Shown here: piece after piece, positions 3,452 to 34,844 of the stretch
How positions within the stretch are numbered: position 1 is the first letter of the stretch
Layout: every line of letters begins with the position of its first letter
Source: a virus
Direction: 5' to 3' (one strand)
Virus record (IMG/VR): IMGVR_UViG_3300031578_000013
Coordinates: 12,162-76,161 of that record
Length of the DNA: 64,000 nt
Program-made: the position numbers and the translations under genes
Notes under the pieces: model-generated
What the model was told of the DNA's origin: nothing
The model's input: only the letters and a program-made list of their open reading frames with translations
The model's database searches: none

Positions 3452-6400
3452 ATGAGAAACACAAAAAAACTGGATGCTCTATTAATCGAAAAATCGGTTA
3501 ATATGGCACGCCGAAAAGGAGACGAATATAACGGTTTCCTTTTTGCACAAATGAATACAGCGCGTTTAACCGATGCTGAAAGAAGATCCTGCAATGTGTA
3601 TCTATTCGGTGCAATGTGGGATAGGATGACCATTGAAGATTTGAAGGCATTACCATGATGCAAATATCATCAACCCGAAAAAACATTGCTATGGTTGTGT
3701 TTACCATTGGTGATACAATCCATTTTACACCACTGGACAAATACAACCCTAATGTAATGGATGCAAAAGCACCGGTGTTCGATGGAACTTTTGATGACTG
3801 CGTGACATTCATTTCAGAGGTTTTATAATGGATGCCTATTTCACAACTTGTAAAGATGCTGGTCGCACTGCATACCTGTTAGGGCCATTCACCACAGAAA
3901 AAGCATGTAAAGTATTTGCAGAATTCCCGGAGGATAACCCAGAATCCAGGCACACTGAAATATATGATGCATGTTGTGAGATTGATCGCAAGGCGCACTT
4001 TTTCGCATATGGTATGTGTCGAGTAAGGGATTTTAAACCGGGTGAAATAACCGGGATTTTGAATAGAGTTGATAAAGAGAAATGGGATAAGGTGTTAGGA
4101 TGACGTTCGATAAAGTAATACCATATCGTTGCTCAACTGGGTGCAAGCCCTTTATGCTAGCAACAAACATCAATGCACCAATTTGTCCAACGTGTAAAGA
4201 TCCGATGACACGATCAAAAGAGCATTTTGCACAAAAGAGGAGATATTACCATGTTGATTAATTACGCTATCCGAGATATCAATACGGGAAAATATTACCG
4301 TCATCCAAAAACCGATGTAACCGGCGAACGACTAGAGTTGGTATCTGGTATAAACCGGGCTATGACATGGGTACAATCAGATGATGGAGAACCACGTACA
4401 GCCCGCTATGTAATCTGTCATCATAACCTAATCGGTTGTGAAATTGTAGCATGTTATGAACATGAAAATCTTAAGAAAGGGAGATTGTATAACCGGGAAG
4501 TTAAGGGAGTTGTATCATGACCACAATTCCTGAAAAAGAATGGAAAAAGATACAAACTCTATCTGATACTATCAAACGTAAAGTATGGGAGATTGAGAAC
4601 GATATAGAAAATCTGGATAACCTCTTACACGCTTTACATGGAGAAGGTATTAGAAACCGAAAATATACCACGAGTGGTTATCCGCAGGTATTTCAAAATG
4701 GGGAATGGGTTGATCGGTGATGGGATCATGATAGAATTCGCAGATAACAAAACAGGTAAAACCATTATGGTATCCCATGCAGAATCCTTCAAGTACGGCT
4801 CTGAAAATCAAAGACGTTTTGCGGATAAGATATCTGCAAAATATATCCTGATAACAGGAGACAATAGAGGGCGATTGCCACTATGGACAAAGCGTATCTT
4901 GAAGGAGAATAATCTTTGGTATAGAAAGATAGGGCGCACCACGTATAAGAGTAATACTTTTGCGTTGTATGACGAGAGGATGAAACCATGAATCAAGTAT
5001 TCAAAGATATTGATGCTATCCTTACTGAATACAAAGTAAAAGGATTCAAAGTAACTGATGGTGAAATGATCGCTATAAGGAAAAACCATCTTTGGTATTA
5101 TTTCAGATGGAATTGCAAAGAAAATGGATTAATGCTATCGGGTGAAACTGATCGTTATGAAAGGAGATGGTAAAACAATGACCCCAGAAGAAATTGCAAA
5201 AAACAAAAGATTGCAAGATACGCAATGGAACAAACAACCAATACCGGATAAATTCGATATGCAGGGGATAATCAAATACCTGCACGAATACTCAGGGAGA
5301 ATCCCCAACGAGAACGAATGTTTACGATTCAATATGTTTCTTGAATCATTCCAGGGGAAACCATCAGAGCGGGAATGCTCTGATTTCTTACAGGTATTGG
5401 GGATGGTTAAGAAATGACCCCCTCCAAAAAATCCCTACTCAACCTCTTCAAAGCAAACACCGGCAAAACACAACTCAGAGTGCCACAGATTGATGAGCGG
5501 AGGATAGTATTGCAAGGGTGGCAGAATAGCAAGGTAAAGAATTATAGGAAGTGGTGATGATGAAAATTACAAAAGATGGATACTTTAAAAAAGGCGCATT
5601 TAAACTGGGTGTAAACCCAACAATGATCGGACAGAAGATCATACACGTTGATCGGTGTGAAACTCCATACGGTTATGATGGATCTTATTGCACGATTGCT
5701 GGAATAGGAATTCCACAAAATCCAAAATATGAATATGTGATCTTGAGAGAAATTTGTAAGGATAGATCACTCGTGATTGAATGGAATCCCCGCATATTCC
5801 CGGGCGAATTATCCAGATTAGAACCGTGGTGGAATGATGGCAAATGGGTTTTGCTAGAGAGTATAGTATGACCCTCTCCCACTTTGCAAAATCCTATCTC
5901 CATCTCCAGGGTGTCGAACTCCTAAAACCGCGAGAGAGAAGCAAACCCGTTGGGGATAGACAGGGTGAGACTATGATTAAGGTTGATCAATGTGAAAGGG
6001 GAGATTTATCATGAATATTGAAATTGGTTGCATTGACAAATACGATGCTATGGAAAAATTCGGAAATGACGAGATTGACATTCTATTCCGCACATGGAAC
6101 GAACAAAGAAATCGGATGACCGGGTGGAGATCATTCCAAAAAGTATGCAAAACTATTGCCAGTCCAGTATGGCCGTGGGAATATCCATGTTCACAAGTTG
6201 AATGGAAATATGTGAGGGTATCATGACCGATTTATCAGATGTCGAAATACACTTGTATGTAGAGTGTGTTAAGATGAACTACTCAAAAGAACAATCCGAG
6301 AACTTCTTTAAGAGTGTGGATGAGACGATTAACTTCGAATTTCTTAACATCTTACGAGAACAGTATGGGAAGGAGAGGTTATGAAACCAGAAACCAATGA

Positions 6401-11483: not shown

Positions 11484-12317
11484 CACTCCCACAATGGATG
11501 ATCGAACTTATCGACAAAACACAAAGCAATACCTTTGATGTTATGGTTGAGCAGATGAAGATAAACCCCGATGCTATGGAAGCGTTGTATAGTAACTCGG
11601 AGTTGCGGCAATGACACTCTCCCACTCCGACATCGAAGCATTCAAAACCCTTCCCGCACCCCCAGACTTAACAGACGATAATTTCTATCGCTTTAAACTC
11701 CAGCGCTATAGAAGCAAGTGTTTCCTGGATGCGGTGAAGAAAGACTTGCTCATTGAAGGGCATCCCAAGGCAGACTTGCTGTTGAGTATTGCATGGAGCA
11801 ATGGGCATGCAGGGGGATACCATGAAGTGTACCGGGAAGCGATGGAGTTGGTGGAGTTGCTTCGATGAAATACAAAGTGTGTTATTCGGAATTTTCCACG
11901 CACGAAATAGAGATCAATGCCAAGAGTGCCGAAGAAGCAGAGCGTATGGTATTGGATGGTGATGGTGTTGATTATACCACATCGCATGAACGGGATGCCG
12001 AACTAGTAAGTGTGAATAGCGTGGAGGTGATTGGGGAATGTTAAACGATTTTGATGGATTTGTATTACCGTGCTTATGTATGCACTCGGCCGGATTTGAC
12101 GAAAAAAAGAAAAACGTTGTGAATGGATATGATTTATTTAATATACGAGAACTCAATGGTGTTGTCATTATTCCATTCAATCGTGTTGCTGATATCAAAG
12201 CCAATGCGAAAGATTATCCGAACTCTTGGATATCAGTACTTAACGCTGATGTGTTCTATGACGACATACCATTTTTCGTGAGGGATCATTGAGGAATGAT
12301 TGGGAGATGAGTGAATC

Positions 12318-28437: not shown

Positions 28438-28817
28438 ACCATATCGGAGTGTATGGGAGAAAAAGGGGAACCGCAATAGTTGACACACCCAAAGGAATTG
28501 TTGTAGTTAAAGGTAAAGATCCCAATTCAAAGTTTATTCTTCCGGGTGGTGGGCCGAAAGGAAGAGAATCCAGATTGGAGGCATCTGTTCGTGAGTTGCG
28601 CGAAGAGACAGGATTGATTGCAAGGGGTGTTTTATTTATGTTTGATTACCAAAAATCAAAGGTATTCCTTATAGACGCGATTGGACTTCCGCACCACCAC
28701 CATGAGATTGCTGCTATCGGATATTATACTCCATATAGTAACGTTGCGATTACATACGATACTCTAATGGTGATAGAACAATACTTAAGAATGAGGAATA
28801 GGATGAGAAGAAAATGA
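28434..28817 (+). CDS. NUDIX hydrolase
   Basis: LPGGGPKGRESRLEASVRELREETGL Nudix box. Confidence 0.9.
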   Translation: MNHIGVYGRKRGTAIVDTPKGIVVVKGKDPNSKFILPGGGPKGRESRLEASVRELREETGLIARGVLFMFDYQKSKVFLIDAIGLPHHHHEIAAIGYYTPYSNVAITYDTLMVIEQYLRMRNRMRRK

Positions 28818-29527
28818 CCACAAGAGTTTGCACGCAGTGTGGTGTAGAGAAAGACGTGGGTTTATTTTATATAGAAAATAGGAGTAAAAAACCAAGATCG
28901 ACGTGTATTAAATGTACCAGTTCCGCATGCAAACGATACCGAGAAAACAATGCAGATGTATTAAAGGAACACGCAAAATTATATCGGTGCGCCAACAAGC
29001 AGGAGATATCGGAACGCAGTAAAGTGTATCGTATGCAGAATTCTGAGTTACTAAAACAAAAGAAACGAGAACGGTTTGCAGCAAATTCCGAAGTATTGAA
29101 TGCAAGACATAGAGCAAAGCATCAACAAAATAAAGATTACGACAACGCAAAAACCAAAGAATATCGTGATGCAAATAGAGAAAAAATCAGGGTGTCGGAT
29201 AGAGCATATTATCTCAATCCAATACGCCAAGCAAAAACAAAATGGTATAGTCATAATCGGAGGCAGAGAATTTTGAATAGTGATGCATCTCTTACGGTAA
29301 AACAGTGGATGAGAATTATAGAGATGCAGAATAACAAATGTTCCAATTGTGGGCGTATGTTCGGTGAACATCTAAAACCAACAAGGGATCACATCATTCC
29401 TGTATCGCTTGGAGGAGGCTTGACGTTTGGTAACGTTCAGGCACTTTGCCACTCGTGCAACTGTAAGAAGAGTAGTAGCGTCATATTCACAAGAGCATTA
29501 AATGAATTGCTGGTGAACCCATGCTAA
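28814..29527 (+). CDS. HNH homing endonuclease
   Basis: CSNC...DHIIP..LGG...NVQALCHSCN; N-terminal CxxC and helical repeats. Confidence 0.9.
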   Translation: MTTRVCTQCGVEKDVGLFYIENRSKKPRSTCIKCTSSACKRYRENNADVLKEHAKLYRCANKQEISERSKVYRMQNSELLKQKKRERFAANSEVLNARHRAKHQQNKDYDNAKTKEYRDANREKIRVSDRAYYLNPIRQAKTKWYSHNRRQRILNSDASLTVKQWMRIIEMQNNKCSNCGRMFGEHLKPTRDHIIPVSLGGGLTFGNVQALCHSCNCKKSSSVIFTRALNELLVNPC

Positions 29528-31203
29528 CCCTTCGTCCATATCAACAGAAAGCAATACGAGACTTATTTGAGTTTTGGGAGTCTGATAAAGGAAATAACGC
29601 CGTCGTGGTCATGCCAACGGGATCTGGGAAAAGTTTATTAATCGCAGATTTCTGTAGACAGGTGGGTTTAGAAAATCCACTTGTAAGAATACTAATCGTT
29701 ACTCACTCAAGAGAACTCGTTTGGCAAAACGAAAAGGAATTAAAGTTATATTGGCCAGAAGCAATAACTGGTATATATTCGGCTGGTCTTAAATCAAGGG
29801 ACACGGATAAACCAATTCTTTTTTGTGGAATTCAAAGCGTCTATAACAAAGCATTCGAGTTTGGGAAGATAGATATTGTCGTGATTGACGAGTGTCATGC
29901 GATTTCAAGAAAGGCGGGTTCGCGGTATCAGCAATTCTTTAAAGATTTGCGTATTGCCAACCCGAATGTTGTGATTTGGGGATGCACCGCAACACCATTC
30001 AGATTGGAGAGCGGTTTAATACACGAAGGCAAAGATGCCATATTTGATGAAATCGTGCATGTAACAGAGATCAAAAATCTTATTAAAGATGGGTTTCTCG
30101 TTCCGTTGATATCAAAGGGTGGTATGAGATCAATTGACTTGACAAATGTAAAAATAAAGGCTGGCGAGTACGATGCAAAAGATTTAGCATATGCCGCAGA
30201 CGATCCAATACTTGTAAAACTTGCAGTAGAGGAGATTGTGACGTGTGGAGAAAAGCGTAAATCGTGGATTATATTTGCGGCTGGCGTTGCACATGCTGAA
30301 CACATTGTAAGTGCGCTGCAATGGCGTGGTATTGACTGTCACCTTATTACTGGTGAAACCCCACTGGATGAGCGCGATAGAGTCATCTCAAAATTCAGAG
30401 CGGGTAAGTTGAGATGTATTGTAAACATTGGCGTTCTCACTACAGGGTTCAATGCCCCTTGCACGGATTTGATAGCACTTCTATTTTCGACATTATCTAC
30501 TGGAAAATATATACAAGTCTGTGGGCGAGGTATGAGAACACATACAGGCAAAAGAGATTGTTTGTTGTTAGATTTTGGTGGCAACATTTTAAAACACGGA
30601 CTTATTGATGAACTTGATCCCGTAAGAAAAAAAGATATATTGTGCATGCCTATGGCAACCCCTCCCATGAAACAGTGCGAAAGATGTAATGCAATTGTTC
30701 ATCCGAGAGTTTTGATATGTCCAGTTTGCGAACAGGCATTCCCGGTAATATCTCCGCATGGAACTACCGCATACGAAGGGCCGGTTCTCTCTACGCAAGT
30801 TCTACCATTCATAGTAGAAGTGAAAGACCAGTGGATAAGCAGGCACAAGAAACAAGGAGGCAAGGACTCAGTCAAGGTTGCATTTTATGACTCGATTGAA
30901 AAAGAGTATGCGTTGTGGTTAGCACTTGATCACGGAGGATACGCTTCCGAAAAAGCAAGAGCACTTGTTAAACAATTTGGGGGTAGTGCCACAACCGTTG
31001 ACATGGCATTGAAAGAACAATTCACCTGGAAGAAAGCAACGCACATCCGCGTAAGAAAAGAAGGCAAATTCTTTCGTATAGATGGGTTTGTGTTTGCACC
31101 CAGAGTATTGCAGCAGACAATTCATACGCAGCAACAAACCATTGGTGGTGGCGTACCGATTGACGATCAATTTTGGAATGAAAAAATAAGGAGAAAAGTA
31201 TGA
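29521..31203 (+). CDS. SF2 DExH helicase, RadD/YejH-like with Zn finger
   Basis: LRPYQ, MPTGSGKS, DECH, TATP, LTTGFN, QVCGRGMR, CxxC pairs. Confidence 0.9.
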   Translation: MLTLRPYQQKAIRDLFEFWESDKGNNAVVVMPTGSGKSLLIADFCRQVGLENPLVRILIVTHSRELVWQNEKELKLYWPEAITGIYSAGLKSRDTDKPILFCGIQSVYNKAFEFGKIDIVVIDECHAISRKAGSRYQQFFKDLRIANPNVVIWGCTATPFRLESGLIHEGKDAIFDEIVHVTEIKNLIKDGFLVPLISKGGMRSIDLTNVKIKAGEYDAKDLAYAADDPILVKLAVEEIVTCGEKRKSWIIFAAGVAHAEHIVSALQWRGIDCHLITGETPLDERDRVISKFRAGKLRCIVNIGVLTTGFNAPCTDLIALLFSTLSTGKYIQVCGRGMRTHTGKRDCLLLDFGGNILKHGLIDELDPVRKKDILCMPMATPPMKQCERCNAIVHPRVLICPVCEQAFPVISPHGTTAYEGPVLSTQVLPFIVEVKDQWISRHKKQGGKDSVKVAFYDSIEKEYALWLALDHGGYASEKARALVKQFGGSATTVDMALKEQFTWKKATHIRVRKEGKFFRIDGFVFAPRVLQQTIHTQQQTIGGGVPIDDQFWNEKIRRKV

Positions 31204-31529
31204 GCGACGAGCACTCGGGGCAATCGGGGTTTGTTCGGTGGTTTCGTAATAAATATCCAAGCATCTTAATTTTTGCCATCCCTAACGGAAGTTACAGGGA
31301 TATGTCAACTGCGAAGAAATTAAAAAAAGAGGGGGTTGTTTCGGGTGTCCCCGACTTGTATGTACCGAAGTACCATTTATGGATTGAGATGAAGCGCAAA
31401 GAGGGCGGCGTGTTATCAGAGGAACAAAAGGCAATGCATCACTACTTAACTATGATAGGGGATACGGTAATAGTTGGTTACGGTGCAGAAGACGCAAGCC
31501 GCAAAGTTTTAGGGGTGATTGGATGGTAA
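31200..31529 (+). CDS. VRR-NUC nuclease
   Basis: AIPNG, GVVSGVPDL, IEMK, LSEEQ. Confidence 0.85.
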   Translation: MSDEHSGQSGFVRWFRNKYPSILIFAIPNGSYRDMSTAKKLKKEGVVSGVPDLYVPKYHLWIEMKRKEGGVLSEEQKAMHHYLTMIGDTVIVGYGAEDASRKVLGVIGW

Positions 31530-32584
31530 TCGTAATTGAAGGGGATTGTCTTGATGTCATGAAGATGTTTGATAATGATATGTTCGACTCCATCGTGACT
31601 GATCCACCAGCAGGGATTTCATTCATGGGAAAAAAGTGGGATCATGACAAAGGTGGGCGTAACCAGTGGATAGCGTGGATGACAACCGTTGCTACCGAAT
31701 GTCTGCGTGTCATTAAACCCGGTGGACACGCATTGGTATGGTCTATTCCGAGAACGAGCCATTGGACTGCTACAGCGTGGGAAAATGCGGGGTGGGAATG
31801 TCGCGACAAAATTGTACATATTTTCGGAAGTGGGTTTCCGAAAAGTTTAAATATAAGTAAATCTTTGGATGCGATGTTGGGAGCAGAGCGGGAAGTTATT
31901 GGGAATAGAACGAGAGTATATGGTTACGAGAAGGACTATCACAATTCGTTTGATAATGCATTGTTTGATGTGGGAAACAATAATAAAATTACCGCTCCCA
32001 CAACAGACATTGCTAAACTTTTTGACGGCTACGGCACCTCACTCAAACCGGCGCACGAAGATTGGTTGCTCTTTCGTAAACCATTGGCGGGCACAGTCGC
32101 GCAGAACGTTTTAAAATATGGCGTGGGTGGGATTAACATTGACGGGTGTAGGGTTGAGTTAAACGGAGAAAAGCCATTCCACTATCCAAACGGTGCGGGG
32201 GGTAGCGATCCTAATCATATGTGGCGAGGTAGAGAGAAGGGAGATGGTGACATTCCGCAGATGGGGAATGACAAAGGACGTTTCCCTGCGAATTTAATTC
32301 TTGACGATAGTGAATGTGTGAGGGAGTTGTTTCCACATAGCAAATCTGGGGCAATGACAAAGCCATATGTTTATACAAATACGGGCCATTCGTTAGGTAA
32401 GCCTGCAGGTTCCACAAAAACACTTTGTGAATCAAGTGAAGGTTCCGCAGCCCGTTTCTTCTATTGTGCGAAGGCGAGCAGAAGCGAAAGATCAGAAGGA
32501 TGCGAAGAGTTTTATACTTTAAACAGCAATATATCTACAGATGACATAAACGAGATTGTTAAAATACTCGCTTTTGTTACATAA
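31523..32584 (+). CDS. Beta-class N6A/N4C DNA methyltransferase, N-terminal part
   Basis: GDCL, VTDPPAG (motif IV), RVIKPGG, GRFPAN, AARFFYCAKAS; lacks the SAM-binding motif I. Confidence 0.85.
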   Translation: MVIVIEGDCLDVMKMFDNDMFDSIVTDPPAGISFMGKKWDHDKGGRNQWIAWMTTVATECLRVIKPGGHALVWSIPRTSHWTATAWENAGWECRDKIVHIFGSGFPKSLNISKSLDAMLGAEREVIGNRTRVYGYEKDYHNSFDNALFDVGNNNKITAPTTDIAKLFDGYGTSLKPAHEDWLLFRKPLAGTVAQNVLKYGVGGINIDGCRVELNGEKPFHYPNGAGGSDPNHMWRGREKGDGDIPQMGNDKGRFPANLILDDSECVRELFPHSKSGAMTKPYVYTNTGHSLGKPAGSTKTLCESSEGSAARFFYCAKASRSERSEGCEEFYTLNSNISTDDINEIVKILAFVT

Positions 32585-32593
32585 GGTAATATT

Positions 32594-33292
32594 ATGGGTA
32601 AGCGAACGGTTTTTAAAAAATATATAATAAAAAAATGTATTTTTTGTGGTGTTGATATACTAAAACGCTCAAATGAAAGCATCAATACCTATTATAAACG
32701 AAAGTTTTGCAAATTGTCTTGCCAACATCAATGGAATGCGAAAAATAAAAGTAGCGATGTCAAATGTGATTTTTGTGGAATTTTATTAAGACGGAGAAAC
32801 AGTGGCATCGGGGTTCATAATTTTTGTTCAGAACGTTGCCAATATAAATATTATTCTCAAACTCACACAAAAATCGCTTCGTGTAATTGGTGTGGGAAAT
32901 CATTTACTAAAAAATTATCGGATCGTAAAACCAAAAGAGTATTTTGTACACGAAAATGCATGGGTGAGTGGCAATCTAAATATGTTATAGGAGAATTGTC
33001 CCCCAGTTGGAATGGGGGATCGTCTTCACTGAATCGTAGAATACGTAGTTTGGTGAAATATGTTACTTGGATGAAACGAGTTTATAATAGGGATAATTAT
33101 ACCTGTCAAGTGTGCGGAGATGCAGTTGGTGGAAATTTAAATGTGCACCATATTAAATCTCTTTCAAAAATTATCAAAGATTGTGGTATAAAATGTATTG
33201 CAGATGCCATCATTTGTTCCGAGTTGTGGGATATAGAAAATGGTGTAACAGTTTGTAAAAAATGTCATGCAATTAAACACAGGAGGAAATAG
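32594..33292 (+). CDS. HNH endonuclease inserted in the methyltransferase
   Basis: Three CxxC...FCS-type zinc fingers, WNGG, RDNYTCQVC, VHHIK, NGVTVCKKCH. Confidence 0.9.
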   Translation: MGKRTVFKKYIIKKCIFCGVDILKRSNESINTYYKRKFCKLSCQHQWNAKNKSSDVKCDFCGILLRRRNSGIGVHNFCSERCQYKYYSQTHTKIASCNWCGKSFTKKLSDRKTKRVFCTRKCMGEWQSKYVIGELSPSWNGGSSSLNRRIRSLVKYVTWMKRVYNRDNYTCQVCGDAVGGNLNVHHIKSLSKIIKDCGIKCIADAIICSELWDIENGVTVCKKCHAIKHRRK

Positions 33293-33293
33293 A

Positions 33294-33566
33294 ATGATAA
33301 TATCAAAAGAGCAATACAATAAACTTCCAAAAAATTTACAAGATTGCTTTGAACCTATGAAAAATATTCATCCTACGGTCAAACCCATTGCCCTCTGCAG
33401 ATACCTCTGCCGTCTCATCACACCCCCAAAGGGATTAATCCTTGATCCTTTCGCGGGTTCTGGTTCCACTGGGGTTGCTGCTACTAATGAAGGGTTTGAA
33501 AGTATCCTGATTGAGTTAGAACATACATCGTGTGAAACTGCACGAATGAGGAATGGCTTACATTGA
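33294..33566 (+). CDS. DNA methyltransferase, C-terminal (SAM-binding) part
   Basis: HPTVKPIAL, LDPFAGSGSTG; own AGGAGG SD at 33281-33286. Confidence 0.85.
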   Translation: MIISKEQYNKLPKNLQDCFEPMKNIHPTVKPIALCRYLCRLITPPKGLILDPFAGSGSTGVAATNEGFESILIELEHTSCETARMRNGLH

Positions 33567-33590
33567 TGAATACCGCAACGGAGCAAAACA

Positions 33591-34352
33591 ATGATTGAAC
33601 CAAACCGAATATACTGCGGGGATAATGTAAAAGTAATGCAAGATATCCCAGACGAAAGTATTGATCTGACGGTAACATCCCCACCATATGACAAACTGCG
33701 AATATATCAAGGCTATTCCTTTGATTTTGCACGAGTAGCACAGGAGTTATATCGTATAACAAAGAAGGGTGGTGTTGTTGTCTGGGTTGTTGGTGATGCC
33801 ACAATTAAAGGAAGTGAAAGTGGAACTTCTTTTAGACAGGCACTTCATTTTAAAGAGATTGGATTCAATCTGCATGATACGATGATCTATGCGAAGAATA
33901 GCTATATGCCACTTACACACAATAGGTATGAGCAAGCGTTTGACTATATGTTTGCTTTCAGTAAAGGGAAACCCAACATATTCAATGCTATAAAAATACC
34001 TTCGGTTACCGCAGGGACAACCCGCAACCGTGGTGGTAGCAAGGCAAAAGAAGTCACATATTCAGAACGAGTGAGAAATGAAAAAACCGTGGTGTCTACG
34101 ACAAAGCAGCATCCGAATATATTCTATTATGATGTCGGAAAAAATGATAAAACAGAACATAATGCACCATTCCCAGAACGGTTAGCAAATGATCACATCC
34201 TCTCTTGGAGCAACGAAGGTGACATTGTTTTAGATCCGTTCAATGGTTCTGGGACAACTACAAAAATGGCAAAGAAAAACAATCGCAAATTTATCGGAAT
34301 CGACATCTCTCAACAATATTGTGATAATGCTATGGCACGATTAGAAATGTGA
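33591..34352 (+). CDS. Beta-class DNA methyltransferase, probably N4-cytosine
   Basis: VTSPPY, HNAPFP, LDPFNGSGTT. Confidence 0.9.
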   Translation: MIEPNRIYCGDNVKVMQDIPDESIDLTVTSPPYDKLRIYQGYSFDFARVAQELYRITKKGGVVVWVVGDATIKGSESGTSFRQALHFKEIGFNLHDTMIYAKNSYMPLTHNRYEQAFDYMFAFSKGKPNIFNAIKIPSVTAGTTRNRGGSKAKEVTYSERVRNEKTVVSTTKQHPNIFYYDVGKNDKTEHNAPFPERLANDHILSWSNEGDIVLDPFNGSGTTTKMAKKNNRKFIGIDISQQYCDNAMARLEM

Positions 34353-34380
34353 TTTTAACATCCCTCTTTTCCCAACACCC

Positions 34381-34420
34381 AAACACCTTTAAATATTAAT
34401 ACAACTTATATTATAGTATG
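34381..34420 (+). promoter_or_regulatory. Archaeal promoter, leaderless start
   Basis: TTTAAATA at 34388, ATG at 34418; T-rich terminator-like tract just upstream. Confidence 0.65.
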
Positions 34421-34844
34421 ACAAACTTTGTTATACGAAGGTTAGGTGAAGATGTATTTTTGGACATTACAGGTATCAAACATATCCTCGTGACTAACAG
34501 TGGAACCCGCGCCGAGATACAATTATCAGAGGGGGATGTTATGATGCTGCGGGAGGCATTGCGATGACAAACATTACGATGATGAAACTATGCCCGTTGA
34601 TGAGCAGGGGGATACACCCGGCAGATTGTTATAGTCATTGTATGGCTTACATCCCCCCAACCGATCACTACTTCGCTTGCACCCTTGAACTCACAATAAA
34701 AAACTACAGCGAGTTATGCAAGTCAGAACGCTACATCGAAGCCCCAGATACCCCGCAGGAAATGACTTGTGATGGGTGTGAGTATTACAAGAAGATCCAG
34801 TGCACTCCCATTCCTGCACGGTGTAAACTTATGGAGAGGAAAAC

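Follow-up and report, generated by a model that had tools for sequence, protein, structure and literature searches.

Homing endonuclease genes usually spare the gene that they invade by residing in introns or inteins. How a gene may be kept working when it is broken without either is the question raised by a DNA methyltransferase (methylase) locus in a viral sequence of 64,000 nucleotides (nt) (positions 12,162 to 76,161 of the IMG/VR record IMGVR_UViG_3300031578_000013, a virus contig of 76 kb), hereafter referred to as the window. The methylase gene of the window is split by a mobile nuclease gene into two separately made halves, the N-half and the C-half. Each half carries an extension at the break, a C-terminal one on the N-half (the tail) and an N-terminal one on the C-half (the head). 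Comparison with related loci points to a "genes-in-pieces" phage methyltransferase, probably produced by a mobile homing-endonuclease element, the halves of which would reassemble non-covalently. Near-identical DNA to the window is present in soil metagenomes.

Organization of the split methyltransferase locus

The two halves retain all motifs of the family, motif IV being located in the N-half and motifs X and I in the C-half, which is the layout of beta-class N6A/N4C methyltransferases (PF01555); the sequence DPPAG is the family consensus. The open reading frame (ORF) of the N-half terminates as ...FFYCAKASRSERSEGCEE-FYTLNSNISTDDINEIVKILAFVT-TAA, and the C-half ORF (33294–33566) encodes 90 amino acids (aa), in which MIISKEQYNKLPKNLQDCFEPMKN is followed by IHPTVKP...LDPFAGSGSTG (Table 1). 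The ORF between them contains three C-x2-C...FC-x3-C zinc-finger repeats and an HNH nuclease domain, and matches PF01844 (E = 2e-5) and PF13391 of Pfam, as well as the HNH endonuclease family phrog_1271 of PHROGs (E = 1e-25). A nuclease motif, a DNA-binding module, a free-standing gene, and a location in a conserved host gene, the hallmarks of an HNH homing endonuclease, are thus all present.

Each half has its own translation signals, a stop codon for the N-half and a ribosome-binding site with an ATG for the C-half. The HNH gene ends with the sequence CAC AGG AGG AAA TAG a ATG, where a single nucleotide separates its stop codon (TAG) from the ATG of the C-half (33294). Since AGGAGG lies within the last HNH codons and 7 nt upstream of this ATG, the C-half is set up for coupled translation. 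The drop in G+C content across the tail, the HNH gene, and the head indicates that the insert is compositionally distinct. The ORFs, motifs, and Pfam matches agree with the initial annotation of the locus, which had described a methylase split by an intact HNH gene with spacers of 9 and 1 nt and a C-half with a Shine-Dalgarno sequence of its own.

Table 1. Features of the split methyltransferase locus in the window
Feature	Coordinates	Strand	Remarks
Methyltransferase N-half ORF	31523-32584	+	353 aa; TDPPAG near start (motif IV)
N-half host-derived core: motif IV TDPPAG and target-recognition region, ending ...FFYCAKASRSERSEGCEE	31523..32509	+	PF01555 positions 2-80
C-terminal extension (tail) FYTLNSNISTDDINEIVKILAFVT and TAA stop	32510..32584	+	Tail codons 32510-32581, TAA 32582-32584
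9-nt spacer, N-half stop to HNH start	32585..32593		Sequence
Free-standing HNH homing-endonuclease gene, 232 aa	32594..33292	+	PF01844/PF13391; phrog_1271
AGGAGG, Shine-Dalgarno-like, serves C-half	33281..33286	+	Within final HNH codons
N-terminal extension (head) MIISKEQYNKLPKNLQDCFEPMKN	33294..33365	+	10 invariant positions in 25 split C-halves
C-half core: motif X HPTVKP, motif I LDPFAGSGSTG, stop	33366..33566	+	PF01555 positions 155-219, E = 8e-17
Low-G+C block spanning tail, HNH gene, and head	~32500..33360	.	27-35% vs ~45% in flanks

Directly downstream of the split methylase, at positions 33591–34352, the window encodes a second, complete and unsplit PF01555 methylase of 253 aa with the motif SPPY.

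Junction peptides of split methyltransferases

The unsplit homologues of the N-half are mostly single-chain methylases of 400–450 aa, many of them 54–64% identical to the N-half of the window. Their linkers, measured from CAKxSxxER to HPTVKP, comprise 11–65 aa, with a few longer ones, and are very variable and unrelated to the tail and head; the ERNxGCE(G/E)L stretch occurs in unsplit forms too. Neither the tail nor the exact head was found in any unsplit gene among the 120 and 150 homologues listed, the exception being the locus L081 described below.

Tails similar to that of the window, with the stop codon at the same position, were found in P0002 (83% identical, LFVLKSNTSQETIDEIKKLLNN) and P0060 (48%, LFILKEKVPQEDIGEIKQLLSL). 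The pattern Y.LK..(T/V)P.(E/D).I.EIK.LL is kept in 11 other loci, and the synonymous variation beneath this conserved residue pattern argues for selection on the peptide itself. The final three to five codons of the tail, together with the stop, co-vary with the nuclease, reading (I/L)L(A/D)(F/I).. before the stop for HNH genes and LLSI before the stop for DUF559 genes. About 25 short C-half homologues start with M(I/Q)IS(K/Q)EQYNKLP..L...F....N-HPTVKP, and the head residues M1, I3, S4, Q7, Y8, K10, L11, P12, F19, and N24 are the invariant ones in the 25 split C-halves. The bodies of the head-bearing C-halves are 51–63% identical to that of the window, apart from one 90% relative. The DNA of the head, ATATCA.AAGA.CAATACAATAAATTACCA, is nearly invariant across loci, synonymous sites included, at a rate of synonymous substitution (dS) of ~1 or more in the bodies.

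A degenerate DNA pattern for the head was used to recover further loci from viral and metagenome collections, and the same tail/head pair was found to flank nuclease genes in ~15 metagenomic loci. The cargo at this junction varies. The window, L098, L138, and L156 carry HNH genes for proteins of 226–232 aa with zf-FCS-type zinc-finger repeats; the HNH protein of the window is 50–57% identical to the other three, which match zf-FCS. DUF559/Vsr-like nucleases of 237–239 aa with the same zinc-finger repeats are encoded in L082, L095, L105, L107, L112, L135, L143, L144, and L148, and a DUF559/Vsr-like gene in pieces in L083, while L103 has a GIY-YIG/NUMOD3 gene. The ribosome-binding site and the coupled start of the C-half are kept, and the head overlaps the last codons of the nuclease gene in the loci of the DUF559 type. 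In L154, which has no nuclease gene, the split and both extensions are kept, and only the last 11 codons of a DUF559 nuclease are left (EVYANITRTIQ followed by a stop); this remnant shows that L154 arose by deletion and stayed split. L081 encodes a single methylase of 507 aa in which tail and head are contiguous (...ERLFGLEGYILKQDTPEDIQKEIGNKF-MIISKEQYNKLPEKYQKYF...HCTVKP), with the former start methionine at the joint.

The junction peptides, regarded as novel in the initial annotation, thus belong to a family shared by many split methylases. The check that it had suggested, a search for both peptides around HNH genes elsewhere, was positive in L098, L138, and L156, and other types of nuclease genes are flanked by them as well.

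Several searches contributed no such loci. The window DNA had no megablast match in the phage collection, and tblastn against annotated phages aligned methylase bodies only, with no match reaching the first residues of the head. A search for relatives with the C-half alignment yielded 80 loci, all via the generic methylase pattern and none with the head. No close relative of the N-half was found in viral contigs. The head alone, a very short query, gave nothing significant against longer proteins, and a head-pattern scan of genome contigs returned two chance matches in unrelated genes. When the DNA pattern of the head was relaxed, it mostly collected small basic marine-phage proteins. These very basic proteins, of the form MPSxxAxKALKxxx-IT(K/Q)KQYDKLPxxLLDKV...KKKK, are encoded in ~60 marine metagenome loci (L084–L162, e.g., L086:9274, L104:6460, and L121:5334); they have I(T/S)xxQYDKLP in common with the methylase head and are otherwise unrelated to it.

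Phylogenetic distribution and exchange of the cassette

The N-domains of methylases, trimmed ahead of the tail, were used to construct a tree of 84 rows, comprising eight split genes, L081, and 75 unsplit genes. The window and P0002 grouped with the unsplit P0005 (support 99), and P0060 with the unsplit P0051 (99). Another clade (99) contained L148/L143, L154/L082, and L112 together with the unsplit P0263 and P0324. L081 was placed in a third clade (95), which otherwise consisted only of unsplit genes with unrelated linkers. Peptide-bearing genes therefore occupy at least four well-supported positions in the tree, and at least 5–6 state changes are needed to explain their distribution. A single clade of peptide-bearing methylases was rejected by the approximately unbiased (AU) test (delta lnL 368, p = 7e-6), performed on a 39-row subset under LG+G4 with a group that was defined after the first tree had been seen, a circumstance that lessens the force of the test.

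Identity values are also relevant here. The N-half of the window, close to many unsplit genes, shares only 31–51% identity with split genes other than P0002, a close relative, and HNH proteins are 50–62% identical to each other while the adjoining N-half segments are only 28–38% identical. The polyphyly on the methylase tree, the invariant head DNA, the closer relationship of the HNH proteins than of their hosts, and the co-variation of the tail end with the nuclease indicate that the tail and head most likely move horizontally with the mobile element between divergent methylases. The proposal of the initial annotation that the HNH cassette brings both peptides is therefore supported as far as their origin from the element is concerned, but not as a property of HNH cassettes, since the peptides also accompany DUF559/Vsr-like and GIY-YIG genes and a split without any nuclease. 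An uninterrupted homologue with both peptides, which it had named as evidence to the contrary, does exist in L081. This gene is most likely a secondary fusion that retained the former start methionine, since its nearest relatives are devoid of the peptides and secondary fusion is documented for the MobA element discussed below.

Three soil metagenome runs (X4, X5, and X6) contained a related phage variant in which positions 32473–33293 are replaced by a different stretch of 820 nt. Identity resumes precisely at the ATG of the head (33294), while the N-half side is ~8% different. From these contigs, it appears that the cassette is swapped as one unit in nature. Contigs from four soil runs contained no allele in which the halves are joined; two long "skips" with sides of less than 30 nt were disregarded there.

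Selective constraint and predicted structure of the halves

Between split genes, the ratio of nonsynonymous to synonymous substitution rates (dN/dS) was 0.08–0.24 for the C-halves and 0.27–0.36 for the N-halves, at dS near or above 1. Judging from these ratios, both halves are under purifying selection.

The fused L081 protein was modelled with AlphaFold2 from an alignment, with a mean pLDDT of 72.6 and values of 75–88 for the tail-head module; a run from the single sequence reached a pLDDT of only 30 and was not used. The module consists of a strand at 391–394 (YILK), a helix at 399–405 (PEDIQKE), a strand at 411–413, where the head begins, and short helices. According to this layout, split genes are broken at the loop that connects the tail helix to the head strand. 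In the alignment used (A4), the last residues of the tails were scattered by MAFFT, and the support of the model is weaker for the tail than for the head. The whole L081 model matched the beta-class methylases M.BceJIV, CcrM, and M.RsrI (E = 1e-11).

In this fold, the cut parts the catalytic half (motifs IV–VIII and target recognition) from the half that binds S-adenosylmethionine (SAM) (motifs X and I–III), and the boundary is the site at which methylase classes are circularly permuted relative to each other. Fragment complementation is plausible at this boundary.

Proposed mechanism

We propose that the element occupies the variable linker of a PF01555 methylase, which connects the catalytic/target-recognition part to the SAM-binding part. 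Its first part would be ~24 in-frame codons and a stop, providing the N-half with a C-terminal extension formed by a short strand and an amphipathic helix. The second would be the nuclease gene, here an HNH gene with zinc-finger repeats. A ribosome-binding site in the last codons of the nuclease gene and then a start codon would follow as the third and fourth parts, and the fifth would be ~24 codons for the N-terminal extension of the C-half. Two polypeptides would be made separately, without RNA or protein splicing, and would most likely rejoin non-covalently into one Rossmann-type fold, with the extensions packing at the junction. We infer that the halves bind each other with help from the extensions, that they form an active enzyme, and that homing is driven by the HNH protein. 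A need for the extensions would be indirectly suggested by the conservation of the tail as a protein sequence and by the confident fold of the fused module, and homing by the intact HNH motif and the swapped cassette of the soil contigs.

More tentatively, and with somewhat less than even confidence, the tail and head could be regarded as a portable, element-borne strand-and-helix "clasp" sufficient to rejoin very different methylases, whichever nuclease is carried, the invariant first 30 nt of the head doubling as a recombination arm or a nuclease-binding site. Such a clasp would be a compact natural tag pair for split proteins. It would also represent a third independent case of its kind, making terminal extensions a general splicing-free way in which homing elements neutralise gene breakage.

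Alternative explanations

Two alternatives concern the fate of the broken gene. If the insert were removed by splicing, as a group I/II intron, an archaeal bulge-helix-bulge (BHB) intron, or a split intein, a single-chain enzyme would result; HNH genes frequently reside in group I introns, and the "fractured genes" of phages combine split inteins with a free-standing nuclease gene (PMC2677866). A group I/II intron was rejected since the locus has only 9 + 1 non-coding nucleotides and an Rfam scan of positions 31000–34500 revealed no intron family at E <= 10, with the reservation that covariance models have difficulty recognizing a core into which a 700-nt ORF is inserted. An archaeal intron was rejected as well: junction-to-junction RNA pairing (-25.6 kcal/mol) was no better than in shuffled sequences (-23.5 +/- 4.4), and a brute-force BHB search produced one match, against ~1.4 expected by chance according to our estimate, at which cutting would retain a stop codon. 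As for a split intein, the extensions are only 24 aa each, no intein or Hint domain was found in a Pfam scan of the locus proteins, and the residue after the asparagine of the head is variable (Ile in the window; I, S, T, F, and D among relatives), this asparagine being part of an N.HPTVKP motif that also occurs in unsplit enzymes. Moreover, L154 remains split although the insert is gone, and its two-ORF state without a nuclease gene excludes an intron as a general solution in this family of split methylases. Splicing in any of these forms is therefore extremely improbable, in line with the initial annotation, which had noted no room for a ribozyme, no intein motifs, and no clean BHB. The split methylase could instead be a disrupted gene heading for loss, without reassembly, its junction being conserved by constraints on the homing site or on co-conversion. 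Several observations favor this explanation and count against a working two-part enzyme. With the intact methylase at 33591–34352 next door, the split enzyme need not be essential; decay is seen in relatives, namely in L095 (3802–4032, minus strand), where an internal deletion has cut the N-half to 77 aa with the tail kept, and in L083 with its nuclease gene in pieces; and the near-invariance of the head at the nucleotide level, together with its overlap with DUF559 genes, may reflect a constraint on DNA and not on protein docking. On the other side stand the full set of catalytic and SAM-binding motifs, the low dN/dS across split lineages at such dS values, the conservation of the tail at the protein level despite synonymous change, the retained ribosome-binding site and coupled start, and L154, where the split has outlasted the nuclease and both ORFs are intact. 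We consider loss of function improbable, though less so than splicing.

The third alternative concerns the origin of the peptides. The tail and head could together be a native strand-helix-strand insert in the linker of one methylase sub-family, with nucleases landing in its loop beside an existing methionine codon. Such an origin would account for the contiguous peptides of the unsplit L081 and for the use of one junction by three unrelated nuclease types, and it is compatible with the good confidence at which the module folds inside the fused protein. In five unsplit genes (P0366, P0279, P0311, P0302, and P0273), the linker is shorter and shows weak similarity (FYW...I.K.EY.KL); given these genes and L081, all or part of the peptide sequences could be derived from a native linker. 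The soil variant also speaks against transfer of the head with the element: its breakpoint at the head ATG places the head, in that exchange, with the downstream host gene while the cassette was swapped. Alternatively, the invariant head DNA acted as the crossover point. A native insert is nevertheless at odds with the scatter of peptide-bearing methylases among relatives with unrelated linkers, the rejection of a single origin by the AU test, and the closest relatives of L081, which have no module. The head DNA is almost identical while the host bodies are synonymously saturated, which fits horizontal spread, and secondary fusion with both extensions kept is known for MobA elements. We therefore regard a native origin as unlikely, albeit clearly less so than loss of function, and prefer element-borne peptides; linkers like FYW...I.K.EY.KL may be the kind of native linker whose capture first gave the element its coding ends.

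Other inserts in related methyltransferases

The methylase N-halves in L082:417–2648 (nested ORFs 830–1423 and 2111–2536) and L143:2974–4566 (nested ORF 3873–4256) contain large inserts, each with an HNH ORF in another frame. The host frame stays open throughout, with no stops, compared to 12–17 stops when free-standing HNH genes are read in that frame, and the host-frame translation of one insert resembles database proteins, such as P0306. Apparently, a nuclease gene has been overprinted within an insert that keeps the reading frame, which would be another means by which a host gene tolerates a homing endonuclease.

Seven unsplit methylases (P0276, P0282, P0286, P0296, P0327, P0035, and P0061) have an insert of 140–165 aa at the same linker site, starting with G(L)D(G)(Y/C)(I/L)T(I/V)K... 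and odd in sequence but mutually conserved. This may represent a further selfish insert of the in-frame kind, or else a domain. In L112, L154, L156, L082, P0269, and P0332, RFFKSIIYQAKAS or RFFKVIEDDYPRFIYCAKAG is found in place of RFFYCAKAS in the region before KAS.ER; these extra residues, located at the site of the second HNH insert of L082, may be scars of an excised element. The window itself contains a second free-standing HNH gene (28814–29527, 237 aa, PF14279/PF01844), located between replication genes and upstream of a helicase gene (29521–31203).

Implications

The split-gene route with terminal extensions supplied by the element rests on two studied cases, nrdA/MobE, characterized by biochemistry, and topoisomerase/MobA, characterized by comparative genomics. 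This route would look general if a methylase version were widespread; the version described here has short extensions and interchangeable nucleases, along with derivatives that lost the nuclease and one that was re-fused. The split methylase would be a small and easily assayed model, with methylation readable in E. coli, and might yield short natural tags for split-protein engineering. A practical consequence concerns annotation: "methylase fragments" of 90 aa starting with M.IS.EQYNKLP are probably working halves and not pseudogenes.

Comparison with known systems

The initial annotation had presented the arrangement as a new alternative to introns and inteins, but the idea was already published (PMC3045599; Manning and Atkins 2022 preprint). 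Element-supplied extensions have been described for two other phage enzymes, although apparently not for methylases, and our literature search found no published description of a methylase split with terminal extensions.

Methylases of actinophages are known to collect in-frame selfish inserts, namely an intein, a LAGLIDADG domain, and the ShiLan domain (Gosselin et al. 2023, PMC9957025). As in the loci analyzed here, orphan methylases of phages are a hot spot for insertion at conserved sites with horizontal transfer between divergent methylases; unlike them, the actinophage inserts stay in-frame and leave the gene unsplit. Dassa et al. (2009, PMC2677866) defined both a family of Vsr-like homing endonucleases and the "fractured genes" with split inteins. 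The window likewise has a phage gene of DNA metabolism broken around a free-standing nuclease gene, and the Vsr/DUF559 type occupies this junction in most related loci. The window, however, contains no halves of a split intein, and trans-splicing is impossible.

The MobA element is composed of a C-terminal extension, an HNH gene, an N-terminal extension, and a bypass cassette, and was repeatedly and independently inserted at one site of the T4-type topoisomerase gene 39/60 family (Manning and Atkins, bioRxiv 10.1101/2022.08.31.505936). The same study reported that some copies from metagenomes have a VSR or GIY-YIG gene in place of the nuclease, that the split and tails may survive loss of the nuclease, and that both tails persist in secondary fusions. 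All these states except bypass have methylase counterparts, in the DUF559 loci, L103, L154, and L081. The methylase element differs from MobA in its target gene, in the DNA-binding part of the nuclease (zinc-finger repeats), and in extensions of ~24 aa instead of ~44 aa. A bypass element of the MobA type was considered and rejected for the window: a coding gap was looked for downstream of the head, and the C-half ORF is uninterrupted, continuing through HPTVKP and FAGSGST without a translational bypass cassette. A different picture was seen in one related locus, L136, where the C-half (714–860) reads MTITKEQYDKLPEHLRGYFDRVGFNSHPT-TGA-GAA-ACT-TGC-AAG-CCC (KPIKL...), with a stop-led 9-nt insert inside HPT|CKP that is flanked by the threonine codons ACG and ACT. 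This insert may represent a small-scale ribosome hop like that of gene 60, protecting the nuclease target site, or the gene could simply be broken.

In the ribonucleotide reductase NrdA of phage Aeh1, the tails created by the insertion of mobE are essential for activity of the split enzyme (Crona et al. 2011, PMC3045599). The window resembles the nrdA-a/mobE/nrdA-b arrangement in having no intron or intein, C- and N-terminal tails derived from the insertion, and, presumably, an enzyme assembled from two chains. In contrast to Aeh1, the host gene encodes a DNA methyltransferase, and the tail sequences are unrelated; the methylase tails, moreover, accompany nucleases of three families and are present in numerous divergent host genes.

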